A stretch of 64,000 nt of DNA from Macrostomum lignano (lineage: Eukaryota), in the NCBI GenBank assembly GCA_002269645.1, contig NIVC01000566.1, forward strand, positions 62,001 through 126,000, given 5' to 3'. Shown here one piece after another: positions 806 through 62,589 of this stretch. The notes below the pieces were generated by a model, which ran no database searches, was not told the origin of the DNA, and saw only the letters and a list, made by a program, of their open reading frames with translations. Within the stretch, counting starts at the first letter, position 1; each line of letters opens with the position of its first letter. The position numbers and the translations under genes were made by a program.

Positions 806-3800
806 CACGGTTGGGCTGGAATAAGATTTCGGGGTAAAAAAATGCCCAATAAAACGACCACTGCAGTGTGATAGAGGAACACCTCAGCTGCTAGGGGAAT
901 ATTTTCCTAAAATGAAATCGGTTTGTCCTGACCAGTTATGCCTAATTATGTTAATTAGCTAGCATAATTAATTTATGTACTCGAAATTAGCCGCTTCCTT
1001 CATGTGAAATCGCCTAAAAACTGCTTTTATGAGCTGTGTTCGCATTAAAATCTGTAGCTATTTAATATCAATATATATTAGTATTAGTTATAGAAAGTGA
1101 GCACTTTGTAGTTCATATTATTAGTACTCAAAAATTAAAGAAAAAAATAGAAATATCCAGCGTTTCAGAGAAAGGGTCTCTTCAAAACTGAGCAGCAGGT
1201 TGGACATTTGGATAGCACCTATTAAAATTTATATCAATAAAATTAAATATATGATATAATTATAATATAACTTATATAGCAATTCATGATCAGTTTATGT
1301 TTTAGCATGCAGGTACTACGAGATACATGTCACAGATAAAGAAGAGAATATTGCTAATCTGAGCAGAAAAGTCTGGGTCAAAAGTTTTTTTAGATATTGA
1401 ATATTTCTTTTGAATTACTTCCATTGCCAATAGAATCAATATTCAAACTTTTGGATGTTGAACTTTTAGATAGATCCCTTCACAAATTGTCATGGAAGTA
1501 TTGCTCCTATTATACTGTTTTTCTTCATCCATGTAGTAGTGCTGGTAACAACAGCATGCAGCAAAGTAGGCTGCACAACACGACAGTAAATTTAGTCAAA
1601 TGAAAAGCCATCACCGCATTAAATATGTCACTGCATTAGATATGCCAGCTGTTATACGCCACTGTTGCCTGCAGCAGCCTATTGCCGAACTGTGGGTGAT
1701 CGGCTGGCAGCCTGTAGCGCTGCCAAGTCCGCTGGAAATCCGAGTGTGCGCTCTCTACTGCCTGTTCGCTACAAGTTCCAAGTGCACGACCAGTGCGATG
1801 GCAGAAGTCGCTCACGTGGCAAAGGAGAACATGCACTTTGGGCGTGACAGTCAATCCCAGTGCCAGGTATGCAGCTCCAAAATTTTCGATTCGCTCACCA
1901 AAATCCGGGACCAATTCCTGGCCAAATGCTCCATTAACAACGCTGTTGAAGCAAATCAAGCACTGGGCGAAGGGCTGTAGTTCATGAGGAACGTCTTCAA
2001 GAAGAACCTCAGCCATCAGCAGCAATTTGCGACAAGCGTTGCCTTCCATTGTGCCGCCGCGGTACCCCGCTCGCACGATGCCGTGAGATTGTAGCCATGC
2101 AAATCCGCGGTCTTCGCCCCAAGCTTCGTTCAAAGAATCAAGCAATTTGTTACTGATTCCGAGCAGAAGATGCAGTTCAGGAGGGGGCAGCAGCATCAGC
2201 ACTTCCTCGTCATCATCACCAGCCAGCAGCGGCAGATTGACACAGTTCATGAACTGCTTCGCTCTGCTCCAAACTCGTCCAGCAGAATTGAACTCCTGCA
2301 CTTTCTGCCGAATTCTACCGAGGGTTCGTGGCCTGCCGCTTGTCGTCAGTGGTGCAGTAGACTCGCAGTACGGACATGGGTGAGCACACGAGTGAGGCTG
2401 GAGTCCGCAGAGAATGTTTGCTAGCTTCATGTCTGTGACAGTCACAGCAGACAGCTCTACCACAGAAACAGCCTGTAGCAGTGTTTTTACATTTTTGTAC
2501 GTTTCTGAGATGTCGTTGACGATTGCGAGAACTATAATTTTTTTCACTCCGGCGTCATTGAACTGTGAGTGGCGTCGCACACTTTCGTGAACTGCAGCAG
2601 CACCGCCGTGCACCTGATGGTCAGACGTGGACGCAACGACAGACACGCAAATCTTAAAAAAACCTCCGCCACCATCAAGCCCCAGCCGGCATTCGAAGTT
2701 AGAGGCTCCTCGCTGTTGGACAATAAATTCAATGAGGCGCGAAGCATCAGTGCAGAGGACAGCAGCACGATCACCAATGGCAGAAGATGACAGCTCGAAT
2801 TGAAGTGTCTTAAGTTTAAAAAAGTCTTCCAATACACGATTCTGAGTCACTAATGAATCTTTCAGCCTAGATTCAACTGCTCGCGAAGAGCTTGCACCAG
2901 CTCTCAGTACCTGCGCGACCTGCAGCGTCTGATTGTTGCTAAGATTCAGCACACCTTTCAGTGTCTTCATTGTGCTGATAGAAGTTGCAGGGAAGCTGGT
3001 TGCTCCATTGCCCACACTAGCACCAACAGTCACGCGCATTGGGCGACCACCTTCCATCCGTGACAAGGAAACACAGCTGGAGCCACTTGCTGCAGCCTTT
3101 GTTGATATGCAGCTGCTGGCCAGCATGTCCTGCGTATCAGGACTGACACCCTGCTGCAGATTAGTCAGTCGCGTTGCTCTTGAGCAGTTGTGTTTCTTGC
3201 CACGGCCAATTTCTGATCGACAAAACGAGCAAATGAACTGTGGTTGTGCTGCATCAGCTGCCGACAATGGATGTTTTCGAGGTCGTCCTGGACGAGATGC
3301 AGCAGCGCCAGTACTGTAAGAGCTGACAGAAGTTGTCAACTTGCTGCTGTTCTTCGATCTGGCAAGCTCGCACAGTTCGCAAGAGCAATGCGGATTATTT
3401 CTTGTGGACGGAGGCAGACTCTGCAGGTCGGCAACCATCTGCTCATAGTTTAGCCTTGGTGGCAACTCACGAGGCGCTGGACCAGATAGAGATGAAATGA
3501 TGCGTCGACACCCGTCACACAAGCCGGTCGGCAGAATGTGCTGTACAGAGGCGAAATTCGGCACCAAATCCTCAGCAGAAAAATTGGCTACCGACCAAAT
3601 TGAGCGCGAGGCTTTCCGCAAACAGAGCAAACACAGACTCTCTCTGCACTCCTCATGTGATTTTTTTGCATTCGGCATATTCTGAAATTCTGAAATTGAT
3701 CGCTGGCCACTGATGCAAGAGACAAATGTTTTGAATTTGGCCTTGACTTGAGTATTGGTTGTGATATTTATTTGAGTGCTGATATGAGTTGGCTATGAAA

Positions 3801-4262
3801 GTTGCAATAATCAATGTACATCTGACAGTCCGACGCATATGAAATAGAACAGTACGAACGTACGTACGTTCATGTGCTAATTTCGATATTGAGCAAAGAG
3901 AGTGCGTGAGACCTAGAGCACAACAGTTCATATTGAAGCTAGAGCAGAGCATTGGCTGCTGCATACATTCTGATTAGCAACTGCTCATCCAGTATAATAG
4001 CAGTTTATATCATAAAAACATAAAAGCAGACCAGGCCATAAAAGCAGTTTTTAGGCGATTTCACACGAAGGAAGCGGCTAATTTCGAGTACATAAATTAA
4101 TTATGCTAGCTAATTAACATAATTAGGCATAACTGGTCAGGACAAACCGATTTCATTTTAGGAAAATATTCCCCTAGCAGCTGAGATGTTCCTCTATCAC
4201 ACTGCAGTGGTCGTTTTATTGGGCATTTTTTTACCCCGAAATCTTATTCCAGCCCAACCGTG
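806..4262 (-). mobile_element. Chapaev-type (CMC group) DNA transposon, apparently complete
   Basis: 226-bp TIRs at 806-1031 and 4037-4262 with 2 mismatches seen by eye, CAC...GTG termini, and a 4-bp direct repeat GCAA at 802-805 and 4263-4266. 4-bp TSD plus CAC/GTG termini is the established Chapaev signature (Transib has 5-bp TSDs). Confidence 0.85.
1636..3678 (-). CDS. Chapaev-like DDE transposase, 680 aa, uninterrupted ORF
   Basis: N-terminal Cys/His zinc finger (HEECRESLCLLC...LPTGLCDGC), AT-hook-like RPGRPRK, candidate catalytic acids in GLDGGGG, TDMKL and SEQAVE, and CPYC plus HVLLCH motifs like the C(2)C/H(3-4)H motifs of CMC/Transib transposases. Confidence 0.85.
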   Translation of the reverse strand: MPNAKKSHEECRESLCLLCLRKASRSIWSVANFSAEDLVPNFASVQHILPTGLCDGCRRIISSLSGPAPRELPPRLNYEQMVADLQSLPPSTRNNPHCSCELCELARSKNSSKLTTSVSSYSTGAAASRPGRPRKHPLSAADAAQPQFICSFCRSEIGRGKKHNCSRATRLTNLQQGVSPDTQDMLASSCISTKAAASGSSCVSLSRMEGGRPMRVTVGASVGNGATSFPATSISTMKTLKGVLNLSNNQTLQVAQVLRAGASSSRAVESRLKDSLVTQNRVLEDFFKLKTLQFELSSSAIGDRAAVLCTDASRLIEFIVQQRGASNFECRLGLDGGGGFFKICVSVVASTSDHQVHGGAAAVHESVRRHSQFNDAGVKKIIVLAIVNDISETYKNVKTLLQAVSVVELSAVTVTDMKLANILCGLQPHSCAHPCPYCESTAPLTTSGRPRTLGRIRQKVQEFNSAGRVWSRAKQFMNCVNLPLLAGDDDEEVLMLLPPPELHLLLGISNKLLDSLNEAWGEDRGFAWLQSHGIVRAGYRGGTMEGNACRKLLLMAEVLLEDVPHELQPFAQCLICFNSVVNGAFGQELVPDFGERIENFGAAYLALGLTVTPKVHVLLCHVSDFCHRTGRALGTCSEQAVESAHSDFQRTWQRYRLPADHPQFGNRLLQATVAYNSWHI

Positions 4263-18714: not shown

Positions 18715-21013
18715 TTAAACTAGACGGGCCGGGACCTCCAGGCAGACAAAGTCGACTTCCTTGGCATCGGCGAGCTCCCATTTGACGACCACGCCAACCT
18801 GGTCGGGTTAAACAACGGCAGGTGCAAAAATAAACAAAAACGGACAAGAGTTAGAGCCGTGGAGTCAGATACGACACGAATAAGCAGACAGAACTTGAAT
18901 CAAAGACAGAATAGGATAAACTGGCATGAATCTGGAGCACTCACAGCTGGGTAGCTGCTTTTGACCTGCAGAGTTGATGTGTACACAGCCTGGGTGCCGG
19001 CCTTCAGCGGGCAAGCAGGTGCCATCGAGTCGCAGGCGTTCGTGTCGGGCAGCGGAAACGGCACGGGGATTTTGGCGACAATGCCGTGAACCACCGCCTT
19101 CACGCTGGTGCTGTTCTCGGACGGTGTGAAGGTGATCTTGATCTGTGCATTCGTGCCTCTAGGCAGCTCGCAGGGAATCTTCGGACACGGGGTCACGTCT
19201 AGACTGTCGATCTTGCCGGCTTTGGAGCCTGCGAAGGGTTTGGAATACAGCTAGAGAACCCTGTGAGCAACGGGATTCCGTAAAACCCATCATGGGTTAA
19301 TATGAAATAGCCTACTACCGAGTAGCGAGAAAAGAGTGTGAAGCGAATCTCTTATGGCGTGTGCAAAAGTTTAGAGTGGGAAGCAGTCATGCCCATTCCA
19401 CCGACCCCCGAGCACGAGCAAGCACACGGATACGCTCACATAGGATGCACAGCGGCCCTGATTTTCTCAGAGTGTCACGCATGTTCACACTGTACCTTGG
19501 TGGTTTGCCCTTAATATGCGAGAATTTCCCCACAAGTCCTTGAAAATACATTTATGTACGAATCCAGAATTTGGTTAATCTAACTTAACCGTAAATCCAG
19601 TCTCTCATAAAAACCTTGGTACAACAGACGCCCATGAAAACAGAAGGGGTAGCAGCCCTCTAGGAGATTCAGAAGGGCAGCAGCACTCCAAACACTCCAA
19701 CCTCTCCATGAAACACAGAAGGGGCAGCAGCCCATGAAACAGACTTCAGGGGCAGCAGGCCTCCATGAAACACAGAAGGGGCAGCAGGCCTCCATGAAAC
19801 ACAGAAGGGGCAGCAGCCCTCCATGAAACACAGAAGGGGCAGCAGCCCTCCAGGAAACACAGAAGGGGCAGCAGGCCTCCAGGAAACACAGAAGGGGCAG
19901 CAGGCCTCCAGAAAACACAGAAGGGGCAGCAGCCCTCCAGGAAACACAGAAGGGGCAGCAGGCCTCCAGGAAACACAGAAGGGGAAGCAGCCCTCCAGGA
20001 AACACAGAAGGGGCAGCAGCCCTCCAGGAAAAACAGAAGGGGCAGCAGGCCTCCAGGAAAGACAGAAGGGGCAGCAGCCCTCCATGAAACACAGAAGGGG
20101 CAGCAGCCCTCCATGAAACACAGAAGGGGCAGCAGCCCTCCAGGAAAAACAGAAGGGGCAGCAGGCCTCCATGAAACACAGAAGGGGCAGCAGCCCTCCA
20201 TGAAACACAGAAGGGGCAGCAGCCCTCCAGGAAAAACAGAAGGGGCAGCAGGCCTCCAGGAAACACAGAAGGGGCAGCAGCCCTCCATGAAACACAGAAG
20301 GGGAAGCAGCCCTCCAGGAAACACAGAAGGGGCAGCAGGCCTCCATGAAACACAGAAGGGGCAGCAGCCCTCCAGGAAACACAGAAGGGGCAGCAGCCCT
20401 CCATGAAACACAGAAGGGGAAGCAGCCCTCCAGGAAACACAGAAGGGGCAGCAGCCCTCCAGGAAACACAGAAGGGGCAGCAGGCCTCCAGGAAACACAG
20501 AAGGGGAAGCAGCCCTCCATGAAACACAGAAGGGGCAGCAGCCCTCCATGAAACACAGAAGGGGCAGCAGCCCTCCATGAAAAACAGAAGGGGCAGCAGC
20601 CCTCCATGAAAAACAGAAGGGGAAGCAGCCCTTTATGAAACACAGAAGGGGCAGCAGCCCTCCATGAAAAACAGAAGGGGCAGCAGCCCTCCATGAAAAA
20701 CAGAAGGGGCAGCAGCCCTCCATGAAACACAGAAGGGGCAGCAGGCCTCCAGGAAACACAGAAGGGGCAGCAGCCCTCCAGGAAACACAGAAAGTGCAGC
20801 AGGCCTCCAGGAAACACAGAAGGGGCAGCAGCCCTCCAGGAAACACAGAAGGGGCAGCAGCCCTCCAGGAAAAACAGAAGGGGAAGCACATCCTTTGACC
20901 CCGTGACGCAGTGACATGGCAGTCAGCTTACCGCAGTCGACAAACTTAGTGACAGGATCGCAGATAACGCCGCCGATCAAAAGAGCCAGCAAAATAGCCA
21001 CTGAACGAAGCAT
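18715..21013 (-). CDS. NPC2: NPC2 / ML-domain sterol-binding protein, 149 aa, 3 exons
   Basis: Exons 21013-20932, 19228-18945 and 18798-18715 join in frame with GT-AG sites. Signal peptide MLRSVAILLALLIGGVIC followed by the NPC2-like pattern FVDCGS...VTPCPKIPCELPRG...VPFPLPDTNAC...CPLKAG...SYPA...VVVKWEL...FVCLEVP. Confidence 0.93.
19700..20890. repeat. 29-bp minisatellite (gaaacacagaaggggcagcagccctccag) filling NPC2 intron 1
   Basis: About 40 tandem copies starting ~40 bp inside the exon 1 donor. Confidence 0.97.
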
Positions 21014-22068
21014 TGCGGCTTGCGAGCTAGAAAAAATTTCAGAAACTGTGAAGCAACGGATTCAACAGAAGCTGCAGAATCAGCACGCCTGCCTACCAAT
21101 TGAAACAGTTGATCTATATAGAAGTGTTTATGCAGCGAGACAAAACTGCACACAGCTTACAAGTTAGAGAAAGTCTCTAATTGCACTGAATAACTGATGT
21201 AGTGTATTTCTAATCAAAAGACAGCATCTGTCAGCTTAAAAGTTTTAGCCAATGCAAGTTAAAACAACGCCAATGGTACTACGTATCGTGCAGATAGAGC
21301 TGGGTTTTCAGATGTTTTGACGCAAAAAACGCAAATTATACTACTATCTGAAAATGAAGTAAGTAGTATACAAAAACGCTATCCTAAGCGTGATATATGG
21401 CAATATGTAGTTGTAATAATCCATGTGCTCATATATGTACATTAATTCCATGTACATTAATCCCTATCTATCTCAAATTGGATATGTACATTAATTCCAT
21501 GTACATTAATCCATATCTCAAATGTCCATGTCTATCCCCAATTCTATATGTACACAGTATGTGCATTAATCTACACTCTACATGTACAGTGTCATCCCCA
21601 GACGGTCTGAGCGCGCACCAAAATTACATGTACAATACTACATGTACGCAGAGGCGAGAATTACTAATCTCATCTACTACCAAATGAGTCAACTAACAGT
21701 GTAGCGTACATCATGTATAAGTATTTACAATGAAGATATATTTACATTTAATCAGTAGCATATTACAGGAATCGAGACATGTACACCATCACCAGCAAAT
21801 AGAATATACAGAAAATTTTACATTGTTTTTTCAATAATTTTCTCTTCATAAATGATTTTAAACAGGTTTGACATGTAAAATATGTACAATAGATTTTTAC
21901 ATTGGCAATTTCGCCACACACAATACAAAAATGCTCTATGTACATGAATTATATATATACAGCAAATAGATTCTGATAAATACAGCAGTATTACAATGCA
22001 AATTATGTACAATAAATAGATTTTACTAATTTAATATTGCAAAATGTACATTGAATTGTCAGTCACCA

Positions 22069-25000
22069 TTATTTATAGCCATAAGGCCTGCTGCAGGTCC
22101 CGTACACACGTTTCGTCAGGACGCGCTGAAACGTCTTGTCCATACTAACAGTGTGTATGGTGCAAGACGCCTTGTCGCGCCTGAACTGAAACTGCGGCAG
22201 TTTCAGGGAGCCGCCGTGTAGTAGGGCACTGCGCAATTCGTCGCTGCGTTCCCGAATCTCCGGAGTCAGGCGGATGCCCTTGCATTTCAGGACTTGGCTC
22301 TGGACTCCGGCCGCATCCTCGACAATGTAAGTGTAGAGCTTGGGCCCTCCACTTACAAAGTCGGTCATCCGGCTGCCTGCGGGCACCTCGTCGGTCCACA
22401 TTCCGAGGCTCGTGCCATGGGGCGGCTCCCATTGGCCCTCGGAATGCCGGTAAACGACCCTGGGTGTGGGGAGAGAGATAATTAGTTCCACATGCCAACT
22501 ATTCAATTCTAAAATAATTTATCAATGCATTACTTACGAGTCAGTTCGCAGTAAATGGCCCGTTCGCCGAGCCCCTCCAATGCCTCGTACAGGCGCAGCC
22601 GGGCCTGCGTGGTCGTAAAGACACCGATTGGCACATTGGAGTACCGGAAGGGCCGCTGATTAAAGTAGCGGTGCCGGTACTCTAGCAGCATAAACTCGCT
22701 GCCAATCGGTTCGCAGGCCTTGACTTTGAGGTTGGGGTCGGTCAGCCGGGCGAGCCAGTCCTCGTAGCTGGATACTATTTCTGTCGATGTCAGGTCGTCA
22801 CGCTGACAAAATTTGCCCCAGAGCCTGTGTGTTGTGAAAAGAAGTGCTACTATTAGTAGAAGAAAATCGTTTAAAAAACAGAATTTATAATTACTTACGA
22901 ATTCAAAAAGATTTTCGCTACAAAGCGAAGTCCGGGGTTGGGCTCGACCTTGTCCAGCGTGACGCCCTCCTTTGCAAAGAAATCGGCAATATAGGCGGCC
23001 TTGTCTTCATCCGACATGCCGGGGGAGCCGCTCGACTCAGCCTTCAATTTGAGGAAGGTGCTGACATAGTCACTGAACAGACCGGTCCGCTTCTCTGTCC
23101 AGTAGGCTAGCTCGTGCACCACCTGCAGCCGGTAGCCCAACTGGAAGGCCTTCCGCAGCTCCGGCGTGGCCCAGGTACCAGTCAGTGCCCGCTGCTCGTC
23201 TGAGTGGTCACAATCGTCGCCGCACTGCTGCTCCATACAGGTGCGGCAAAGCCCAAAAAAGAGCTTCTTTTGCACTCTGTACGGCAGCAGCGGAATGTGC
23301 AAATTTGACGGCGGCAACACAGTTACTTTGGCAATACCAAAGTAACTAGCCAGCGCGTCAGAATCTAGCACTTGCGGCGTCGGATGTTGCACCGGGTGGC
23401 CAATCGGGTACGGGTCCTTTGACTGCACCGTCGGGTACAGAGAGACCTGCCAGTTGAAATAAAACATTATTTTCATAAACTGTATTTTTGCAAAATATTC
23501 TACTATATTAGTAGTATCACTACTCACCACATCCCGATATTTGAGAGTCTCAGTCTCGCTGGCCACAGCATGCGGGATAAAACACTCTACGCGGCCGCCA
23601 TAGAGAGCATCTTCCATCTTGAGTGGAGCGCGCAGATGTGCAGTTGCGGCGATAAAGTCGGCCTGCGGTGCCAATACAGTGTCGTATTCATGCTCCCAAA
23701 TGACACGAACACTGTAATTGTGCCGCTCCAACTCGCGAGTGAACCACTCGGTCTCGTGGCGGATATGGCTCAGAGGCTGCCGTTTGAGCGGGTGGACAGC
23801 ATCCTGATCAGGCATGCACTGCTCGCAGCCATGGTAGAAACAGCCATGAAACTGCAAGACAGTGTTGCTCGCCTCATCAAAACCATCCACCTTGCGGCCG
23901 AGAATGACCGCCTCGCCGTCAGTCGAGTCGCAGGTGCGCAGCCGCCCGCCAAATTCGGTGGCATTCAAATAGGTCAGCCACTTGCGCGCCTTGAATGACT
24001 GCTGGTCGGCCTGCCGGGCAATCACGCCGACCGAGTTGGGCTCCATAAATCGGGTGGTGAAAACGGCCATTGCCAAACTGGCAATCGTATTGGCCTGTAC
24101 AAACGGTTCCAGGCCGTCGCAAATGTCTCCAATTATTGCCCTGTACTTGATACAGCCCTCGCGAAGCAGGACTGTGTCGCTCAAACAATAATCGAGATAT
24201 TCCCGATTAAAGTTGAACAACTCGCCCTGTCGCGAGGCTAGCCAAGCACAGATTGAGTCATAGTCCTTGTTTGCTTTGCCGCCATAATACTCAATGGCCG
24301 GGTAGGAGCCCACGTAGTTCCAATTAGCCGGCTTGTTGAACTCGTGGGGAAACGTCCCCTTGGCCAGCTTTGTGTCAGCGAGCCCCAGCGCTTTTGGGAA
24401 TTGCGCAAGCGGGATTGGTATGAAATTTAACGAATCTTTGAATACCAATTTATCCACCGTCATGCTCATTAGCCGGCTGCCCTGGAACAGTACTTGTGGC
24501 CGCTTCTTGGCCAGGCCGTTGAGTAGAGCGCCAAGCAGTAGAAACGAATCGTAGCCTGATGCATTATGCGCTACAACAATGGCGCCGCCTCGGAAAGCTG
24601 TGCTCAGCCAGGCGAAAAATGCATTCAGCGAGGCCGGGCCCACAGACACAAAATCGGCCATTTGGCAGGCGCAGTCTGAGTGGCTGACGCAATTGGAGAA
24701 TTCCTCCCCCAGATCGCGGCCAGTCAGACAATTGGCGGCGCTATGCAGGCCATTGCAGAGGCGGCAAGTCTCGCGCGGAAACGCCCGGCCGGAGCAGGTC
24801 TCGCAGCACGTGACGGCAGTCACCAGGTGCACGTGATGCTGCTTCTCCTCGTCCGTGTATGTTTCCGTATCGTAGAACACGTACGGCATAGTTGATGCTT
24901 TCACTTTGGGAGCCTTGACGAAGCACAAATGCGAGCCGGCCTCGTCGTACTGTTTACACAGTGGGCACTTGATGTGCCCGCATTTGTGCTCCGGCTCCTT

Positions 25001-27550
25001 TTGACCGGCTTTCAGGTCTTCGCAATACCCGCAATTGGGGCAGACACGGGTTGAGCTGCAGCGTGACCGCCCCGCCCGGTTCTTTCGGCGGTGGTTGTCG
25101 AAGCACTGCTGATTGTAGCACTTGAGGCCACAATCAGCACAGCGTTTGTAGTCACGCTGCAGGCTTTTGCAGTCGGTGCCGGGCACTTTGCACTGAGGGC
25201 AGGTGTTGGCGCACCTGTGTTCTCTAGACATGCAGTCGTACGGTTGCTGGCAGCGGTCGCAATAGCGGCGGGCTCCGAAAAATGGCGGCACCTTGCACAC
25301 CGCGTTAAAGTGTTCGCCAATTAGGTGCAGATTCAGCACTTCGCGGCCGGGCAGGGCATACACGCATGTATTGCCCTCCTCAGCACTGTATACCCGGACG
25401 CCGAAATCTCGGCCGGGCGACTGGGCGTTCAGAACTGCCAGCAGTTGGGTGAGCACATCAACCCCGAAAGGCCCGGCCTGTGCAATGGTTGATAAAGACT
25501 AAAACATTTGTATATTAATAAAAATGCAAATTAAAATGTGCAAGAACATTTTTTACTCACCGAATACAATTTGGCGGCAATCTGAAGCTCCCCAGTCAGC
25601 TTCTTCTGCATTGGGGAGTCGGCCTTGATTGTTTTCCACGTGTTCTTAGTGATGGCTTTGGCCTGCAGATCGGCAAAGGCCTTGGCCACCACCAGCGCTC
25701 GAATGAGACAGCGCTTATCGCTGTTGGCGATGATGACATAATTGCGTCCCCCAATTGAATGCCTGGCCTGAATGTGGCGCTCCGCCGCATCTAGGCTGCC
25801 GCAGCCGCCCCGCGGGACCCAGGCCTTGAGCAAAAACAATTTAAAGTTGTTGCCCAAGACACTGGAGTCCGACTGCAGAACCTTCTTGATATGTTTAAAT
25901 ATCAACTCTGCAGTGAAGCGGGCGGCGCGGACCGGCGGGACATTAACCGTGAGCAGCATGTTGTCGGCAGTCAACTTGGCCGAGATGAAATCGTTGACAT
26001 TCGGGTCGGCGCAAAGCACAGAAATTATGCCACCAAACGTGGCGCGAATATCAGTGGTATCGGTGAACGACACCACATATTCTACCCCCTTGGCTCTAAA
26101 CTTAGGCAGGGCTTTCGCCCCGCCAAGACGCGCAATGAAGCCTGAAAAATGGAGGGTTTTGAAATTAGAATTGCGAGTGAATGACTCATGAAATAAAATC
26201 AACTCCTTACCATCGCCTTCGACAGTGTCGGGCTGGGGCGGGGGTTGAAATTGAGCCAAATCTGCAATAAAAATGCGCATGGTGACTAAAATTCTGACCG
26301 CTTGGAATTTTACAACTGTCAAAAACTTTTGATTGATTGCCTGCAGCAGCAGCAATTTTATCGCCCCACCCCAAGCAACAAAAATCGGCGAGTTGTAAAA
26401 ACCCCAACTCGGCACGTTCCGACACGTAGCAACAAAAGAAATGTGGGGTTGATTGACCCCCGTTTCGAATTTTAGGTTGTCAAAAATGTTTGATTGATGA
26501 CCCTGATAACACAGATCCTGCCACAGCAGACATTGTAAAATTTAAGAAAACCCCTATCAGCACGTGTCTCCATTGTGCCTCCTTGACACCTAGCAACAAT
26601 ACCGCGCGGCTGCTTTTGGGTTTTTAAAGCTGTCTGATTAATAACCCTCACTGTAGCAGCCAAGTTTTATTGCTGCCAAAACCCCTACTGTCAATTGCAG
26701 CGGTGATTACATCATCATGCTGAGCCCAAAAATCGGGGTTGATTTTATCACTGCCGCCTGCCCACCCCCCCCCCCGCTGAGTCACGTTCGCGCCGCAGGA
26801 TTGCTGTTTTTGCTTCTCTCTAGTTCAAGGATTAGTCATATACTGCCCCTGGAATTTTATGACTATCCTCTACAGGCATTATCTGGCTATACTGCTGCTG
26901 CTGCGGATATTCTCTAAAACTCTGTTATTTCAATAGGCCTGAATTGAGAAATCCAGTTTCCTCTTTTTACTTCAACATCTATGGCAGGAGGAAATTCATA
27001 AATTTTAAGCCAAAATGAATGCTAAAGATGAAAAGCAGTAGTTTCAAAGAAATCACTATATTATTTCAATAAGCATGAATTTAGAGTTTGCAAATCACAC
27101 GAATACAAATGAATGCTGAACCAAAAGCAGTTCCTCCCTTTACTTCAATCTGCGACAGACAGTCCGAAGTCCGAATCCGAATTTCAATAAGCTGAATTTA
27201 GAGTTTGCAAAGCAACTCCGAATGCGAAGGGTGAAAAGCAGTTTTACAGTGGGCCTAATATTTCAATAAGCCTGATTTTGAGTTTGCGAAAGCCAAATGA
27301 ATTCTAAAGATGAAAAATCAGTTTTACAGAGAACAGCCCTATATTTTTCAATAATCCCGAATTTAGAGTTTCGTAAAAGACAAAGACGAAAAAGAAATTT
27401 TTACACAGACTTGCAAGACTCACCTAGTTGTCTCCGCTTTGCAGCCGGAGGCTGTGACTGCTGCTGCTGCTGCTGCTGCTGCCTCGATGGGCCGGCCTGC
27501 CCCCACAATGCCGATATTGCCGCTTCCGCAGCAGAGCGCTTCGATGCCAT
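22069..27550 (-). pseudogene. Protein-primed family B DNA polymerase (pPolB), ~1311 aa predicted, 7 exons, 1-bp deletion in motif C
   Basis: Exons 27550-27424 (inferred), 26261-26211, 26141-25561, 25477-23528, 23446-22899, 22824-22538, 22459-22069. Motifs: ExoI YDTET, ExoII AHNASGYD, ExoIII YCLSD, VSR-like FHGCFYHGC...IWEHE, motif A DVVSLYP, motif B KIFLNSLWGKF, motif C YC[D]TDS, C-terminal KR...PYGY. All splice phases are consistent once one base is restored between 22545 and 22546. Confidence 0.88.
26920..27400. repeat. Degenerate ~85-140 bp repeats (atttcaataagc.gaatttagagtttgc...) in predicted pPolB intron 1
   Basis: Core recurs near 26925, 27063, 27181, 27261 and 27346. Confidence 0.7.
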
Positions 27551-27691
27551 TTCGATGGGGAAGGTAGATGGTTGTTGATGCTGCTGATGCTGCGGCTGCT
27601 GCTGCTGCTGCTGTTGTTGCTGATGCTGCTGTTGTGGTTTCTGCTGCTGCTGGCTGCTTCTGCGGATGCGGCTGCAGCAGCTCTCACCCGC

Positions 27692-27699
27692 TTTATATA
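27692..27699 (-). promoter_or_regulatory. Candidate TATA box (TATATAAA) for the pPolB transcript
   Basis: Minus-strand GTATATAAAG about 140 bp upstream of the inferred ATG at 27550, followed by a CAG-rich leader. Confidence 0.5.
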
Positions 27700-30600
27700 C
27701 CCCGCAAGAGGGAGGGTGGGGTAGGGGCACGAGAATTGTGCGTGATTTTCTTTCCCGGGTCTATATTCTCCAGATTAGTGTACGATTGAACACTCCATTC
27801 CGCATTTGGTATAGAAAAGTTGGGGTCAAAATTACCCCGCCAATTCTTTTCTCATGCGGTATTTTATTGGATCTGAGCGGAGCCATCCAACCGGCACTCT
27901 CGCAGGAGTGAAATGGCGACTTCGTCAGAGTACAGTCTCTCAAAGAAGAAGACCGCTTCCTCTTGCAACATATCTTTTCGACTTGAATCGGATAGAAAAC
28001 GGTGTTTATCCAGAAAACAATTGGCAGAAGCTGACCAATAATAGCTAAATACAGATGAAAAATATGAAAGATAACTTCTGTGGTTTTTAAGGCCCGCCTG
28101 TCTCTGCGAGAAAATGGATGTCAAAAATCGCTGTATCAATTTAATGACCTGGGGGAAATGGGGCTTGTGTGCAAAGCATCCGATTGACAGAGGCTTGGGG
28201 AAGAGTTAATGGTCGATGAAAAGCTCTTGCCATCATCTAAAATATCCATCAAAGAGTAATAGGTGACAGCCCCTGTCTCGAGCCAAAAAATCAGAGAGAC
28301 AGAGTTTTCTACTTCTGTTTACGTAATGTTTAGGGATGGACCTGGGGTTATAGTGACAGAGAGTCAGTTATGGCATTTACGCGGTAGTAAAGAATTGCCT
28401 TGGTGAGGCTGGGTTAGGTGTTGTGCTGTTCTCTCCATATTAGCGAACATTAATAGTCCTGGGTTGAATTTTGATATGGCTAGAATGTATAGCGGAGAAT
28501 CGTTGAATTGAAGGGTGATTCAACATGCAAAGTATGCAACAAAACCGATTCAGTGCATCTAAAAGAGGCTGTTGGGAGCTTCAGAACTGAGAATAACGTT
28601 TAAAATAGCATCAATGACATGATTTAGTAATCGAAATCAATTGAATGCTGAAAACTTTAAGTTTAATAGCAGACTGTGTTTTTAGCCCCAATTTTACAGT
28701 GTCTATACAATATTTCCCCAGCTTCTTGGGCAATATACATGCCTATTTGAATGACAAAACAGCATTTTTGATGGTTTATTAGCTAAAATTATGATTTCTA
28801 TTGATAAAATGACAGATTTCGATCCATAAAGTAAGCATTTTAACGTTAAAAATCGAAAAATGAGGAAAACTCGTGTTTTTCATGAAAAAAATTGCATTAC
28901 TAGTAATTTAGCCTCCATTAACTATTTCTTGGGCTGGGCTGGCTGTGGACTTCCATGTGGGATTTATTCCTGCTTCGAAGCCGTCTCAAGTAAAGTTGAA
29001 ACGGCATTTGGGTAAATTAACTGTTGAAGTTTCCAGTGATGAAATTACTGATTTTTATCCACAAAGTCTAACTTTTAACGTTAAAATTAAAAAACTGTAG
29101 AAAACTCGCCTTATATGAAATGTGCTTTTTACGAGCTAGTAATTTAGCTTTTAATAAACTTGGACGGAATTCCAAACTTGGAGAGGTCAGTGGGTGATTC
29201 ATTCCTGCTTCGAGAGATCGAACTTTCATAGAGTCTGAAAGCTTGAAGTGAGAGGGCAGGGGAAGCGATAGAATTGGCATAGCAGCACGTTTTTGGGCGG
29301 GTGGACTTCACTACTTCTAGTATACCGCATTGGCCATAGTGCCAAAGTATTTCTGTGACAAAACACATCTATAGAATTCAGTCTCGGAATTGTATGCGGA
29401 GGAGACACTGATTCATAGGCTGTGTACATTGACAGATGCAGGGGTATTGGGTCGATGCAGTTGAAGGTTGACTCGGATTTGCTCAGATTCGTGGGGTTGA
29501 TGTGTGCATTGAAAGTTAGTTTCTTGCTAACTGGGGCGGCATGGATGACGTAATTGGAGAAGAGGGGTTTTGCTGAATGAGGTTTAATATAGGCTCCGTG
29601 CTGTGAAAAGATCTGTTTGTACACTGAAAATGGAGAGAGGGTCGAAATTCCTTGGCATTCAGAAGGGTGACAGAGAGAAACAGGGACAAGTGGTTCAATT
29701 CGATTTGCTTTATAGGGGTCTGCTGAGGGGTGGATGTTTTCGAACAAGTCTTGGGGTTGAATTTTGAATATAGCCGAAGATAAAGGGTGATTCAACATGC
29801 AACATAATTAATTCCATAGTGTACACCAGCGTCAGTGGCATATTTTGCGGATTAAAGCGCGACAAGGGGTCTTGTACCATCCACACGATCAATATGGACA
29901 AGACGTTTCAGCGCGTCCTGACAAAACGGGTGTACGGGGCCTGCAGCAGGCCTTATGGCTATAAATAATGGTGACTGACAATTCAATGTACATTTTGCAT
30001 TATAAAATTATTAAAATCTATTTGTTGTACATAATTCAATGTACATAAAACATTTTTGCATTGCAGTATTGCCAAATTTATCAGAGTAAATCTATTTGCT
30101 GTATATATAATTCATGTACATAGAGCATTTTTGTATTGTGTGTGGCGAAATTGCCAATGTAAAAATCTATTGTACATATTTTACATGTCAGACCTGTTTA
30201 AAATCATTTATGAAGAGAAAATTATTGAAAAAACAATGTAAAATTTTCTGTATATTCTATTTGCTGGTGATGGTGTACATGTCTCGATTCCTGTAATATG
30301 CTACTGATTAAATGTAAATATATCTTCATTGTAAATACTTATACATGATGTGCGCTACACGGTTAGTTGACTCATTTGGTAGTAGATGAGATTAGTAATT
30401 CTCGCCTCTGCGTACATGTAGTATTGTACATGTAATTTTGGTGCGCGCTCAGACCGTCTGGGGATGACACTGTAGATTAATGTGAGTGTACATATAGAAT
30501 TGGGGATAGACATGGACATTTGAGATATGGATTAATGTACATGGAATTAATGTACATATCCAATTTGAGATAGATAGGGATTAATGTACATGGAATTAAT

Positions 30601-32919
30601 GTACATATATGAGCACATGGATTATTACAACTACATATTGCCATATATCACGCTTAGGATAGCGTTTTTGTATACTACTTACTTCATTTTCAGATAGTAG
30701 TATAATTTGCGTTTTTTGCGTCAAAACATCTGAAAACCCAGCTCTATCTGCACGATACGTAGTAATGGTGTTCAGGAGGGTCAGGTCAGTGCAGACTGCA
30801 ACTGTGGTGTCTCTAATTTACTTTACATAAAATGGGGCCACTTTTGACCGAATTGGATGGTACACTGATTAAACAAAAACTCTCCGACTTTCCTAGAAAC
30901 GAAAAACTTGGCACATTGCTAGTAGTTCCACCAGTGAACGAGCCGAGGCCGGCGCCGCCGAAGGCGCCGACTGGCGGGGCCTCGGGCGAGTGAATAATTT
31001 CTACCCATGGCGGCCGAAGGCCCATCCCACGCACTTAAATTTATTTCGACATCTTTATGCAGTTTTGGTGGGTTTTTTGGGTAAAAAATGACCCTCATTT
31101 TATTATTTCGCCACTTTTTCCTACGAAGCTTCTTGAGTTTGCGCTTCAAAGCAGTGTAGTTGGATGCGCAATGCAAATATCTACAAGTGTCTAAAGTTTT
31201 GTTTTCCTACGATTCTGCAGTGCTGAGAAAATCGACAAAAATCGATTTTTAAAAAAATCACATGACTTTCACATTATTGCTCATTATAATTTTGAGAACA
31301 TGGTGCGAATAATCCGATTTCGAATTTCTATAGCATAGTTGCTGTACTATATTGGTTTAAATTGCCGTCGTCTGATTTCGCTGCTTTCGGCTTTATAAAT
31401 CGATCAGAAATCGATAATTTGTGATTTTTGGCTGATAGGGTGCCCGAAAAATTGATGATTAAAATTTTAAAAGAATGGTAGATCAAAGGCGGAAACGTCA
31501 GCGAGTTGTACTAATGTCTGGCTTAAATTGACCAAGTTTTTGAGTGTCTGCACCAAATGCTCATGTGTCAAAAGTGATTGGAAATCGATCAGAGTAGTGA
31601 TTTTTTAATATTTTGCTTGAAATCAGGCAAAAAACGCAATAGGACGGCAATATTTTAATGACGGCTGATTTCCCACAAAACGAGGCATATTTGTGTGCAA
31701 TTTCTAGAGATTCGGTTCATTGGGTAAAAAATTATCGATAATAAACTGAAAACTTGACTTTTTACTTTTATGTTAGTTCCGGGGCTATTTAAACTGGAAA
31801 TGTTAGGAATTTGCACTGAAACCAATGCACAGTGTTCCATATAGTTAATTTAACATTTTACTTGAGTTTCATAACCATTCGATGTTCTTTTCAGGTAAAA
31901 AATGCATTTTTTGCACCAAAATTCATCAGATTAAGCTGCATACCGCTTTGCATAATTTGCATTTGCTTGCGATTGCTATTGCTTTGGCGTTAGGCTGACT
32001 TAAGCTGGTTAGAAAGGAAAGGAAAGGAAGGAAGAATCGTACATACAATGTACACACACCCGTCCCTTCCAAGTGGGGTTGTGGCGAGAGGGCTTGGCCG
32101 ATAAACGGGCGTCACGTGATTAGAATTTGGTGTTAAATTTAGCTCTTTAACAGCACATTCGAATTGCAAGCCCAGTACAAAGTTTGGCGGGGGCAAGCTC
32201 CAAGTCACTACGTGTACAATCCCTTCCCCTGACCAAAAGTTGAGATACGGCTTATGAAGTAGCAATGTACAGTGTTTTGGAATGATTTATCTATAGCTTT
32301 CTTTGCAACCCCGTTGGAGAAGAGGCTTGGGGTATCTTATGCCAGTTTACTATCTGATTGAGAGTACGAGTATTATGTCCCACAAAACTGGCCTGACTTT
32401 CCAAGCACTTAAGCTGATGATTGCTAATTGCTAAGAGGATCCTTCCTTGGGTATAACCCTGCTACGCTGTAGACTTTAGACAATTTTTTTAGATCGAGGG
32501 CCTATTAGAGAAGAATCCAGCTCATGGCTGCGGCTGCGGCCCAAATGAGAGGAAATTAAAGTGAATAGAGGGAGAAGAGAAAAGAGGAGATAAGAGATAA
32601 AACGAGAGAGAAGTGAGAGGAGAGGGGGAGACTAGAGAGAGGTTAGAGAGGAGAGAAACAGAACAGACAAAGAGATACAATGGGAGAAGTAGAGATTTGC
32701 ATTTTTCTTGAGCTTCTCAAAGTTCTTTTTCATCGGTACAAAACTAGGTTTACCAAGTAGTATGAAGACCCACGTCTAAAAAGAAGCCCGTTCACTGGTG
32801 GCAAAAAGACGTGTGCGTCTTCATACTACTTGTACCGAATACCGATGACGAAATAAAAGCTAGGGTTAGGGTTCATAATGAGTTTCTGATTGGTTTCTGT
32901 TGGGCGGACGGGTCTGTTA

Positions 32920-33972
32920 CAGGGATTGCCCAAATCCCAATCCCGGGATTTCAAATCTAAATTTCCCGATCCCCGGGAAAAATTGTTGTTTGTATTTTTG
33001 TTACAACAAAAAGGGTGTTGTAATATGAACATAATTGGGCCCAAAACTAGTTTATTATACTGCGCTAATTTCCGTTAATTGCCGCACGTCGCGTGGCGTC
33101 TTTTTAAACCGTTACTGTTACCCGAGTGAAAAGTAAAAGTCTGTCAGAATTTTTGTTTTCGTTTTTCAAATTACTTAATGGATAGACTTGGCAATTGGTA
33201 TTGGTTGGTAGTTGTCAGTTGATAAGCTTCCGCTTGGTTGGTTGGTACCTCGTAGTTGCTAGTTGCTACGAGCTCAGTATTTGATGCTGTGTGAGAGTGA
33301 GATCAGAGTAGATAGTCTCAATAGATCGAGTTAATTTAGATCAGCTTCAGAAGCTTAATCAATACTTTTCGTTTTATACACTCCTACTCGATACTCGATA
33401 AACACATCCATGTATATTGCATTTGAAATTTGTGGCATAACAGATTTTAATGTGAAATTTATTGCAATGTAAATTTTGATATTTGGTTTACTTCTTAACT
33501 ACTAATATACTAGTAATTTTATACAACTTAAATACGTCACTCACAAGATAATGCTGTTTTTCATCTACAAATAGATCATTAACTCTCGATCTACAATCAA
33601 AGATGGAAGCAAAAAACGTTTAGCCTTAAAATTCCAGCCCGGAAGCTTAAAAATCTGTATTTTTCTGATCCTGGGATAGGCCGAATTCCGGCGATTATCT
33701 TGTGACGTATTTAAGTAAGTAGTATAAAAGTAATAACTAGTAGTAAAGAAGCAAATCAAATATCAAAATTTAAATTGGAATAAATTTCACATTTAAATCT
33801 GTGACGCCGAGTTTAAAAAGACGCCACGCGACGTGAAGGCAGTTAACGGAAATTAGCGCAGTATTATAACTAGTTGTGAGTCCAATTATGTTCATATTAC
33901 AACACTTTGTAAAAATAAAAACAAAAATTTGTCCCGGGATTCGGGACCCCAATCCCAGGATTGCAATCCCTA
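32920..33972. mobile_element. Degraded non-autonomous inverted-repeat element (hAT-like termini C/TAGGGATTGC)
   Basis: About 190-bp imperfect inverted arms (32920-33110 vs 33790-33972); no matching TSD found. Confidence 0.55.
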
Positions 33973-36134: not shown

Positions 36135-37477
36135 TCAGAAAATGGCATGCAGACTGTAGTGGAAGAGCGAACAGCGGTTAAAATACCTTGAAATAAGCTC
36201 AAGTACATCTACGGAAAGTAGAATCGCAGTTTTTGACAGCCATTCCTGCTTCATCTGGTGCCGGGAGAGCGACAGCCGCACTGAGATGTTTGTGTACAGA
36301 GGCATCGCCTGGCGACTGACGATCGTGTACGATTCCTTTCTGAGCGCGTTCAGCCCGTCCTCATAGTGCCTGGCCCGCCAGGCCATAAAGTGCGTGTACC
36401 CGCCCTCGATGCGGACGGCCTTGGGGTGGCGCACCATCTTGTAGCGACCGAGGGTGAGCGGCGGACGGGACACCAGCATGCCGGCCTCCATCGTGCGGGC
36501 GCTGATGTCGTCGTCCTCGTTGCCCCAGCCCCAGTACACGTTGGAGAAGCCGTTGATGCGGAAGAAGTTCTTGCTGCTCATCGCTGCACACGACCGATGG
36601 GAAGAGAACTGGTTTTAATCCCGCTTACTAACAACACGTCAAACGATACATATCGGCATAGCTACTCACCCAGCACAGCGCCGAGGTAGTTGTAGAACAT
36701 CACGTGATACCGCATCTCGTCAATGGCGGATGCCAGGTGCCTGGCGTTCTCATCGCACAGGTACACATTCCGATCGTGCTCGGGAATCATGTCCACATCG
36801 TGGAAGATGAAGCAGTCAAAGCTGGCCAGCTTCAGGGCCTCCACCACGCCAACATTTATCAGCATGCCTCGGTTGAAGGGCTCTGGTCCTGTCTGGGTGA
36901 TGCGGCAGAGAGGATTTTAAAAGCTGCCTCTTTACCTGCTTAACTCACCGCTCACCTGCTGAACTGCTGAACTTACTTCTTAACTCTTAACTTCATTGCT
37001 CACCTGCTCAACCACAAACACAGTGTACTTGATCAGCTGCCTTCTCAGCATCCGATGCAGCCGGTTCAGCAGCAGCCGTAAGTGAAAGTCCCGATTCCTG
37101 AAGGCCACCATTACGGCTACGTGTTGCAGTGGGGTGCAGTTTGATGGAGCCCAGCTTCCGCCAGGACGCAACCTCATTTGTGTCGGAACTTCGGGACCAG
37201 CCAGAGCAGTCTCAAGATGATGCAGCTCTGGTGCATTATGCATATCTATTGGCTGCAGCTGCAGACTGTCCCGCCGCAGGTAACAGCGGCCCGACTTCAG
37301 CCTTGAGTCGTCGGCTGGCCAGTCTTCAATGAAGACGTCCGGCTGCGAGTAGCGGCACCTGCTGCTGTAGTTGAAGAGGGCGAACACCCACAAGCACAGG
37401 TACAGGCACAGCAGCAGGTAGCGGCCCGCGACAGACATGTGCCTGCTGACGCGTATCGGGTACCCGCGGCAGAACAT
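36135..37477 (-). CDS. GT7 beta-1,4-galactosyltransferase-like protein, copy A (~381 aa, 3 exons)
   Basis: Exons 37477-37004, 36892-36670, 36583-36135. Type II TM segment LLLCLYLCLWVFALF, VAFRNR, PFNRGML, DxD motif FHDVD, NGFSNVYWGWGNEDDD, YKMVRH. Confidence 0.9.
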
Positions 37478-38691: not shown

Positions 38692-40382
38692 GAACTACCA
38701 AGAGAGGGGGGGAATTTCCACCCCCCTGACAATTTTTTGCTGCACCGGAACGGAGCAACGCAGGCACACGAAATTCGAGAACACGGGCTAGCTTTTTGTT
38801 GCGCACATTCTCAAACAAGAATCAAGTCGCCCCAGCCCTCCGGACCGTCGAGATATTCGACGATTCTGCTAGAAGGTCGGATTTTTCCCATAAGCGCTAT
38901 AGTGTATTCAGTACACCCCTGTGCGCCAATCAGCACTGCGCCTCAGTGCAGCCTTGCCAAGTCTCCAAATTTCATCAGCACGTCAACCACATGTGTCTGC
39001 ATCAGCTCTGACTTCGTTGGTCACTAGCCTTCTCCCAGGCGGAGCTTCTGGACCTTCAACGGGTGGCACGAGGTGACTAGCTCGTATGAACACCCTGATG
39101 CGAATTTCTCTAGTTTCGCCGATCAGGCCTCGACCTCGACAGTGAGAAAGCCTCAACTGCTGGACATCCTCAGCTAGTCTCTCAAGCATTCCATCATCAC
39201 CCCGACGCCATCGGCACTTTCAACAGATTACACCAGGTGATTATGAACATCCTGTTGCAAATATGTTAGATTGTTCTAATCAATCTTCAATAATGGGCAA
39301 ACCTCTACTGGTAGGTATCCTCAACTAGTTTTTCAAGCATCCGGTTGTCATTCTGCCGTCGTCGGCACCTTCAAGGAGACGAAACCGACTATAAACACCC
39401 AAAAGAGATGATTTTTTTATTTTAAACAATTTTAGCAACTTTTAGGACAGAAGACTAGAGATTCAGTATATTATGAATTGATATTCATTCCACACAGAAA
39501 ATTGGATAATTTCTAGTATTTTTTTCTTCGCGAAGATTCTGTTCAATTTACAGTGTAATTAACAAATTACGTCATCACGTTTACTTAATCATGTCTGGTG
39601 ATGATAGACTATTTGAGAGTCTAGTTGAGAACGACCAGAAATGAAAGTTTGTCCATTATTGATGCTGGTGAGCGACATCAAAGAAATTCACAACAGCGTG
39701 TCTATAGTCACCTGGTGTCATCTGTTGAAGGAGCCGACGGCGTCGGGGTGGTGACGGAATGCTCGAGAGACTAGCTGAGGATGTCCAGCAGTTGAGGCTT
39801 TCCCACTGTCGAGGCTTGATCGGCGAAACTATAGAAATTCGCATCAAGGTGTCCATAGTCACCTGCTGTAATCTGTTGAAGGTGCCGACGGCGTCCGGGT
39901 GATGACGGAATGCTCGAGAGACTAGCTGAGGATACCTAGCAGTTGAATTTTGCCCACTGTCGAGGCTTGATCAGCAAAACTCTAGAAATTCGCATCAGGG
40001 TGTTCATAGTCACGTGGTGCCACCTGTTGAAGGTCTAGAAGCTCCGTCTCGGTGAAGGCCAGTGACTAACGAAGCCAGAGCTGATGCAGACACATGTGGT
40101 CGACGTGCTGATAAAATTTGGAGGCTTGGCAAGGCTGCACTGAGGCGCAGTGCTGATTGGCGCACAGGGGTGTACTGAATACACTAGCGCTTATGGGAAA
40201 AATCCGACCTTCTAGCAGAATCGTCGAATATCTCGACGGTCCGGAGGGCTGGCGACTTGATTCTTGTTTGAGAATGTGCGCAACAAAAAGTTAGCCCGTG
40301 TTCTCGAATTCCGTGTGCCTGCGTTGCTCCGTTCCGGCGCAGCAAAAAAATTGTCTGGGGGGATTCCCCCTCTTGGTAGTTC
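38692..40382. mobile_element. Foldback-like element with ~550-bp inverted arms and internal ~152-bp subrepeats
   Basis: 38692-39245 is the reverse complement of ~39850-40382 at high identity; 39700-39850 duplicates 39850-40005; no TSD seen. Confidence 0.75.
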
Positions 40383-62300: not shown

Positions 62301-62589
62301 ACAGCTTGGTCCGCTTCTTCATCACCTCGTACAGATTCTCCTGCATGTACTCGAATATCAGGTACAGGTAGTCGTTCTCGCGGACCACCTCCTTGAGGCG
62401 GACAATGTTGGGGTGGTTCAGCCGGCGAAGGGACTTCACTTCGCGAAGATTCAGGCACTCGTCCCAGTTGTAGAACTTCTTCTTCATCTTTTTGATGGCC
62501 ACCTTCTCGCTGGTCTCGGTGAGGGTGCCGAGCAGCACAGAGCCGTAGGTGCCATCGCCCAGCTGCTTGAGGGTCTGGTAGCGATTCAT
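59311..62589 (-). CDS. MAK: MAK/ICK(CILK1)-family Ser/Thr kinase, ~636 aa, 3 exons
   Basis: Exons 62589-61660, 60713-60165, 59742-59311, all phase 0. MNRY...[38 protein letters not shown] activation loop, C-terminal RTDWAAKY. Confidence 0.93.
59770..59970. repeat. 22-23 bp minisatellite (ggatttggggatgcggtttagg) in MAK intron 2
   Basis: About 9 copies next to the exon 3 acceptor. Confidence 0.92.
60830..61450. repeat. 27-28 bp minisatellite (cctcagattgggatctcaaattcccat) in MAK intron 1
   Basis: About 22 copies. Confidence 0.96.

Follow-up and report, generated by a model that had tools for sequence, protein, structure and literature searches.

A 64,000-nucleotide stretch of the Macrostomum lignano genome (assembly GCA_002269645.1, contig NIVC01000566.1, positions 62,001 to 126,000 of the forward strand; hereafter the window) contains an integrated Polinton-type element with long terminal inverted repeats (TIRs), a 6-bp target-site duplication, and a gene for a family B DNA polymerase of the protein-primed type (pPolB). 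The element is real and mobile, and most likely forms one segment of a bipartite Polinton, the one with the polymerase, the other segment carrying the integrase and virion genes. For convenience, the polymerase class is called POL, the integrase and capsid class CAP, and the two families in which both occur F1 and F2. The window element is an F1 POL element.

The window element and its polymerase gene

An earlier note on the window, made from the sequence alone, described a 9,486-bp element with TIRs of about 905 bp, a perfect AATGGT duplication, ACTAC...GTAGT termini instead of AG...CT ends, and pPolB as the only recognisable gene. Sequence and alignment bear out all of these points (Table 1). 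The TIRs (903 and 907 bp) align at 92.4%, with the outermost 279 bp 100% complementary, and are long, as in Polintons. The element starts with ACTAC and ends with GTAGT, as do other copies, and lacks the 5'-AG...CT-3' ends of Polintons. Ends in 5'-AC are rare yet have a precedent, an (AC)3A end in one fish (PMC8097293; this and the other published sources are cited from excerpts). A 4-bp duplication with a TACTAC end fits the window locus alone; this parse is excluded because copies elsewhere share the ACTAC/GTAGT ends and 6-bp duplications. The same insertion, with identical flank, is present on a second contig (C2009).

The window pPolB matches PF03175 (E 5e-28), as expected of a protein-primed family B polymerase; this is the only one of the 13 frames scanned with a credible Pfam match. 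The closest database proteins are 92–96% identical and bear the label Macrostomum lignano as well. The gene is composed of seven predicted exons separated by six GT-AG introns (about 1,310 codons), with no stop within the exon frames. Splicing of four of the six predicted introns is seen in RNA-type contigs from three runs of three studies (two in 3/3 runs, one in 2, and one in 1) and of none of these four in a DNA run, the spliced contigs being family members at at least 90% likeness, not necessarily the window copy. The joint between exons 1 and 2 is not seen in the RNA-type contigs; the exon 1 region is kept in other F1 copies.

Exon 5 contains what we take to be polymerase motifs A–B, and exon 6 what is presumably motif C. 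A frameshift near 22545 falls in catalytic motif C of the window copy; of the 21 loci scanned, 18 have the motif in frame (2 are not matched by the pattern). The frameshift is possibly genuine, possibly an error of assembly; unless it is an error, the window copy would now be a passive passenger. Exon 3 is predicted to encode a terminal-protein/vOTU region, after the pPolB architecture described in PMC11071308.

An rve integrase, capsid proteins, an ATPase, and a protease are all absent from the element. Free of integrase and virion genes, it falls outside the definition of a Polinton on its own; the pair of POL and CAP falls within it.

Polymerase and capsid classes with common ends

The outer repeat gives 219 first-look candidates in the genome assembly, and a 14-base pattern of the ends matches at 214 places, as compared with 16 for a control; up to 100 matches were used from each end list. 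The assembly holds duplicated haplotypes, and duplicate insertions were removed by target site. Three classes of elements share the ends: POL, CAP, and a palindromic class.

In POL elements, pPolB is the sole gene or is accompanied by PC4-like and dUTPase genes; no integrase or virion gene is present in those examined. Perfect 6-bp duplications flank 12 of the 18 two-ended F1 POL loci (one of the 19 loci is one-ended), giving 11 distinct insertions. The earlier note had looked to repeat copies elsewhere with distinct 6-bp duplications as the mark of a mobile family, and to a single-copy deletion product as the finding that would undo its reading; the 11 insertions support the former and dispose of the latter. 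Unexpanded F1 POL elements are 9.5–10.8 kb in size. Oversized POL elements (12–34 kb) were considered as full-length parents and rejected, as they hold retroelement or tandem-repeat inserts.

Two layouts of POL are distinguished. The second layout, with a PC4-like single-stranded DNA (ssDNA)-binding gene (PF02229), joined in F1 by a dUTPase gene, is found at L016 and L025 on contig C1263, at L052 on C157, and in all F2 POL elements; POL elements of the window type are without both genes. Rearranged, nested clusters of POL copies are present at L052–L053 and L156–L157 (C157), L040 and L154 (C471), and L143–L144 (C513), and are possible insertion hot spots or silencing clusters. Locus L014 (C4099, from about 1284) was set aside as a separate Polinton, with an AGTAGT end and a different virion module, nested in an F1 end.

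CAP elements are 8.3–12.0 kb in size. F1 has 16 distinct CAP insertions, 11 from a set of 16 loci (14 with perfect duplications) and 5 from 8 further loci. CAP elements carry a run of genes for an rve integrase (E 1.5e-8), a major capsid protein (MCP), an A32-type ATPase, and a Peptidase_C5-type (adenain-type) protease. The fold of MCP, predicted from an alignment, is a double jelly roll (pLDDT 91.6). It matches PBCV-1 Vp54 with a Foldseek E of 9e-18, the best matches being the capsids of PBCV-1, iridovirus, mavirus, and Sputnik. The ATPase and protease have Atlas look-alikes at 0.98 and 0.97, respectively, leads that are backed by gene context, the families sitting on 28–52% of the Atlas cluster members. 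Gene order and weak similarity, with no family match, suggest a putative minor capsid protein and a putative core protein. Sequence searches of the PDB with the capsid and the protease give no match, scans of IMG/VR find no relative, and the 12 CAP frames scanned give no match to the NS1-type family.

The palindromic class has long arms derived from segment ends and is mostly without a core gene; 6-bp duplications are present at 21/23 loci. These derivatives are abundant (L001–L010, L021, L024, L030, L035, L058–L060, L164–L170), have arms of up to 4.7 kb, and resemble copy-back defective genomes. In some of them, a CAP-type outer repeat is fused to POL-type arms. A THAP/P-type transposon lies within L001 and L017, the dUTPase arms of which are duplicated.

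The sequence common to POL and CAP is limited to ~31 terminal bases, and the repeats of 0.4–0.9 kb are particular to each class. As in the segments of a segmented genome, the terminal sequences are common and the interiors are not. Bases 6–27 occur in 38 variants among 84 F1 ends; both ends are alike in 37 of 42 elements, and identical variants are found across classes. In F1, the distance over bases 1–27 is the same within and between POL and CAP (0.276 vs 0.276, p=0.44, n=22), and bases 33–80 are class-specific (0.237 within vs 0.722 between, p=0.0005). The class structure of bases 33–80 is present in F2 as well (p=0.0015, n=15). Among 59 F1 terminal variants, in which the first 14 bases are biased by the search patterns, all four allele combinations occur at 108/153 site pairs, as recombination would give. 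The outer ~31 bp likely serve as replication origin and integrase substrate. The hypervariable mosaic possibly reflects a diversification of the origin against defective genomes or host silencing. The subterminal block beside the variable bases (21283–21305 in the window) is nearly invariant, with 71/76 40-mers identical.

Both classes are under purifying selection. The ratios of nonsynonymous to synonymous substitution rates (dN/dS) were calculated pairwise by the Nei-Gojobori method, and the pairs are not independent. Among F1 copies, dN/dS is 0.04–0.14 for PolB exon 4 (14 pairs against the window) and 0.10–0.15 for MCP (8 pairs). The C-terminal part of the integrase gives 0.15–0.38 among F1 insertions, and the protease and one unnamed CAP gene give higher values, 0.2–0.8, with few changes. 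The ratios of about 0.1 in PolB and MCP indicate that both halves have been copied under selection on their proteins. POL and CAP carry, as segments do, complementary, non-redundant essential genes, each under selection.

The split is repeated in F2, whose PolB and MCP are 61–68% and 84–89% identical, respectively, to those of F1. F2 ends are ACTACTA. All 11 F2 POL loci examined are 8.7–10.1 kb in size with perfect duplications, and are distinct insertions. Of the six F2 CAP loci examined, five have both ends and duplications and the sixth is cut by a contig end (4 + 1 distinct insertions). The subterminal motif of F2 CAP occurs in 20 facing pairs, 17 of which are 10.3–10.7 kb apart. The remaining pairs are two of about 14 kb, the one read of which holds a THAP transposon, and an 18-kb one without a core gene. 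A degenerate F2 end pattern gives no match. At L263–L264 (C56), an 18.4-kb element has F2 CAP-type ends, 1.2-kb repeats, a 6-bp duplication, and a 623-bp tandem repeat, and no core gene.

The MCP tree places F1 and F2 as sisters, and so does the PolB tree, a quick version with long branches. The synonymous divergence (dS) between F1 and F2 is 1.55–2.9 or saturated across genes. The sister relationship in both trees, together with the near-saturated dS, indicates that the split between POL and CAP is likely old.

Single-piece forms and other features of the window

No capsid-module gene is present at 34/34 F1 PolB positions in the DNA examined, which is only 10 kb at some of them. Conversely, PolB of either clade is absent from 21 CAP loci and from 9 further capsid-gene loci. 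As the PolB profile barely detects the distant PolB clade described below, CAP loci were re-tested with a query of that clade; both clades match PF03175. Among 104 PolB and 63 capsid-module positions, only three pairs lie on one contig, 49, 165, and 468 kb apart. These searches scored 135 of 155 PolB, 98 of 534 MCP, and 150 of 301 ATPase candidates; 11 of 70 F2-level PolB, 24 of 33 F1 MCP, and 6 of 29 F2 MCP loci were examined. At the 34 F1 and 11 F2-level PolB positions, and by co-location of the scored candidates in an incomplete assembly, no single-piece form of the F1/F2 lineage is found. A candidate on C2932 (L161–L163), with an ATPase and an F2 PolB 9 kb apart, was rejected: here, an F2 POL element, flanked by a duplication of its own, is nested in a distant-family capsid gene.

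Nor are the missing genes found in the right arm of the window element. The earlier note had reckoned with a spliced integrase or capsid gene at 27700–29850, and none is found at 26542–29852 by Pfam or by locus comparison. In the latter, 82 frames from this stretch match none of the CAP, F2, or distant-family loci tested, only other F1 POL elements. The frame of 193 codons (29229–29807, minus strand) is near neutral (dN/dS 0.55–1.11 in 8 comparisons) and has no match in PHROGs.

A distant family in the same assembly serves as a control. Its PolB adjoins the capsid module at 3/6 loci; two loci have a PolB stub only, and one has an N gap. The ends are of the canonical AGTAG type in the one element read. 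Outside this genome, 9 of the 14 metagenome contigs of at least 7.5 kb with a 29–34% identical capsid also carry PolB, and the other 5 are too short on that side. The two controls indicate that the assembly can hold single-piece Polintons and that the relatives are single-piece. The single-piece distant family (L101–L118) has a PolB with an Endonuclease_7 domain, a dUTPase, and a frame that we take to be TBP-like. Its PolB-stub derivatives appear to be amplified.

Table 1 Features of the window element (positions in the window)
Feature	Position	Strand	Remarks
Whole element, POL-class segment of family F1	21278..30763	.	9,486 bp
Left target-site duplication	21272..21277	.	AATGGT, 6 bp
Right target-site duplication	30764..30769	.	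AATGGT, 6 bp
Left TIR, POL-type interior	21278..22180	+	Holds final ~38 codons and stop of pPolB
Right TIR	29857..30763	-	Inverted copy of pPolB 3' end at about 29852–29968
Outer ~31 bp	21278..21308	+	Common to integrase/capsid segments; bases ~6–27 hypervariable across family
pPolB exon 7, to stop	22069..22459	-	Upstream joint in 3/3 RNA-type runs
pPolB exon 6, presumed motif C, frameshifted in window copy	22538..22824	-	Flanking joints in RNA-type contigs
pPolB exon 5, presumed motifs A–B	22899..23446	-	Joints in RNA-type contigs
pPolB exon 4, Cys-rich region and exonuclease domain	23528..25477	-	PF03175, homologues, dN/dS
pPolB exon 3, predicted terminal-protein/vOTU region	25561..26141	-	Upstream joint in 1 run
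pPolB exon 2 (predicted)	26211..26261	-	
pPolB exon 1 (predicted)	27424..27550	-	Phase matches exon 2 over 1,162-nt GT-AG intron
TATA-like box upstream of predicted exon 1	27692..27699	-	Sequence
Right arm, non-coding as far as tested	27700..29856	.	Related sequence builds arms of palindromic derivatives

Elsewhere in the window, a short frame at about 20930–21013 (minus strand), ~265 bp from the left end of the element, has a signal-peptide-like start, may be a host gene's first exon, and presumably resembles ML/NPC2 proteins. A DNA transposon-like element at 806–4262 has 231-bp inverted repeats and a 718-codon frame (1639–3792, minus strand), and two lesser foldback or inverted-repeat elements lie at 38733–40349 and 33015–33905. 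A 527-codon frame at 53953–55533 (minus strand) is of a kind not recognised. From their motifs, we take 61630–62667 (minus strand) to be a protein-kinase-like exon and 36138–36614 (minus strand) to be a glycosyltransferase-like exon.

A probable bipartite organisation and its alternatives

The window element is best explained as the POL half of a pair with shared ends and complementary genes, and likely as one segment of a bipartite Polinton, in which POL likely copies both segments and the CAP integrase and virion proteins likely insert and package them. The earlier note had proposed a satellite that kept its replicase and was integrated in trans by a helper. The part about a replicase-keeping element integrated in trans agrees with the 11 distinct duplications; the satellite-on-helper part does not stand. 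No longer helper with the same ends is found that also carries a polymerase. Since the end-sharing elements have integrase and virion genes and no polymerase, the dependence is likely mutual.

After the biology of Polintons and adenoviruses, linear molecules would be released from integrated copies. The polymerase, primed by its own terminal-protein domain, would copy any molecule with the terminal origin in trans, by strand displacement. Displaced strands would form panhandles, the repair of which would keep both ends of one molecule alike and let the repeat extend into the 3' end of the polymerase gene; panhandles would also give rise to the palindromic, gene-less copy-back derivatives. The CAP integrase would insert all classes in trans with 6-bp duplications, and the CAP capsid, ATPase, and protease would package both segments. 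The unexpanded elements of all classes are 5–12 kb, sizes that would fit separate packaging of ~10-kb pieces. A multipartite double-stranded DNA (dsDNA) Polinton virus, with two linear ~10-kb segments that integrate separately and are each enclosed in a double-jelly-roll particle, a copy-back defective swarm, and a hypervariable, recombining origin, is a further step that we put forward tentatively, doubt slightly outweighing belief.

Several observations weigh against the bipartite organisation. F2 bases 1–27 are weakly class-structured (p=0.039, n=15). A 23-bp subterminal stretch is common to F1 CAP and F2 POL, not F1 POL; because it crosses families, the proposed pairing of POL and CAP within a family depends on the outermost bases only. 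That the runs are RNA is the tool's guess, and the transcript evidence covers pPolB, not the CAP genes. Given the partial coverage of candidates and loci, a rare single-piece form may exist. The evidence comes from one genome, and the system is known from its assembled copies, not from free linear molecules, terminal protein, particles, or trans-activity. Finally, PolB-deleted derivatives of the distant family amplify (2/6 loci), which keeps alive the deletion scenario considered next, and PolB-less Polinton derivatives are reported in butterflies (10.1101/2025.02.07.637071). A PolB-less class by itself is therefore no proof of segmentation.

The alternative that survives best, though an improbable one, is that POL and CAP are both defective, having arisen by deletion from a single-piece Polinton that supplies all proteins and is itself unassembled, lost, or an exogenous virus. 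Incomplete candidate scoring leaves room for such a parent, deletion derivatives do amplify in the distant family, and palindromic defective forms are many, most with 6-bp duplications. However, derivatives of one parent should keep its long repeats, and POL and CAP share ~31 bp; genes supplied by a helper should decay, and dN/dS is about 0.1 on both halves. In addition, the split recurs in two families at near-saturated dS, and no linked form is found at the F1 PolB positions examined. The suggestion of the earlier note that the window element is a deletion derivative that moved as a unit is unsupported for the same reasons, the short shared terminus and the repetition of the split in F2.

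Slightly less probable still, POL and CAP may be two separately evolving selfish elements and facultative partners, a plasmid-like pPolB replicon without a capsid and a capsid element without a polymerase, not descended from one genome, with converged or captured ends and a spread that is maybe intracellular and particle-free. Their interiors share nothing, and the F1/F2 PolB is on a long branch, in another clade than the PolB to which the nearest relatives of the capsid are linked. The PolB introns suit nuclear, host-like expression, and the subterminal sharing crosses families. Against this, F1 and F2 co-diverge in both trees and the terminal variants are pooled across classes, indicating long obligate co-replication, and the capsid genes are under purifying selection. 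Functionally, this alternative differs from a bipartite Polinton mainly in origin and particle formation.

Single-piece, integrase-bearing Polintons exist in the genome, but integration of POL by the integrase of an unrelated resident one, with CAP irrelevant, is very improbable, as the distant family has AGTAG-type ends (one element read) and CAP has the ends and terminal variants of POL.

Polintons are described as single-piece elements, and are regarded as the lineage from which adenoviruses, virophages, linear plasmids, and the polymerases of bidnaviruses arose. A bipartite Polinton would share with Polintons/Mavericks (Polintoviricetes, animal adintoviruses) the same core set, including TIRs, 6-bp duplications, pPolB, rve integrase, double-jelly-roll capsid, A32 ATPase, and adenain-type protease, but here the core genes are split over two separately integrated ~10-kb elements. 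Polinton/Maverick ends are AGTAGT/AGAGAG, whereas F1 ends are 5'-ACTAC, and the F1 pPolB has introns, which are missing from intact vertebrate Mavericks (PMC8097293).

Bidnaviruses and Drosophila Vesanto virus have linear pPolB genomes divided into at least two segments whose termini match (PMC8502044, PMC8363768, 10.1101/2024.03.25.586562). They have ssDNA, a parvovirus-type capsid, and NS1, whereas POL and CAP have a double-jelly-roll capsid and an rve integrase, and each segment is integrated with its own duplication. The double-jelly-roll MCP sets the pair apart from Bidnaviridae, which are defined by ssDNA, a parvovirus-type single-jelly-roll capsid, and NS1. PolB-less Polintons of Pieris coexist with complete relatives (10.1101/2025.02.07.637071), and the Polinton-like viruses (PLVs) AHEV_PLV1 and Ca_PLV1 are without integrase (PMC11296320). 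Like POL and CAP, they are incomplete and apparently moved by functions in trans; they have a complete relative or no known partner, whereas POL and CAP are reciprocal, selected classes with no complete form found. Linear plasmids derive from Polintons by losing the morphogenetic module (PMC11071308). Cytoplasmic or mitochondrial linear plasmids and transpovirons are, like POL, linear inverted-repeat pPolB replicons without capsid genes; unlike them, POL is a nuclear element that is spliced, sits integrated between 6-bp duplications, and is matched by a cognate partner with capsid and integrase. In the full-text literature as excerpted, neither a segmented or bipartite Polinton nor any work on Polintons in Macrostomum lignano turns up, although an earlier repeat-library note is possible.

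If the bipartite organisation is true, a stable split between replication and integration/virion functions, retained while two families diverged, would represent natural segmentation of a dsDNA virus that integrates, and an intermediate toward capsid-less pPolB plasmids and segmented pPolB viruses. Swapping of modules and polymerases among Polintons has been reported (PMC8502044, PMC10748475), and reassortment of segments would be a simple route to it. Surveys in which one element must hold both polymerase and integrase would overlook split systems or call their halves defective, and pairing by terminal bases recovers them. Macrostomum lignano is a laboratory animal, in which the formation of Polinton particles is directly approachable.

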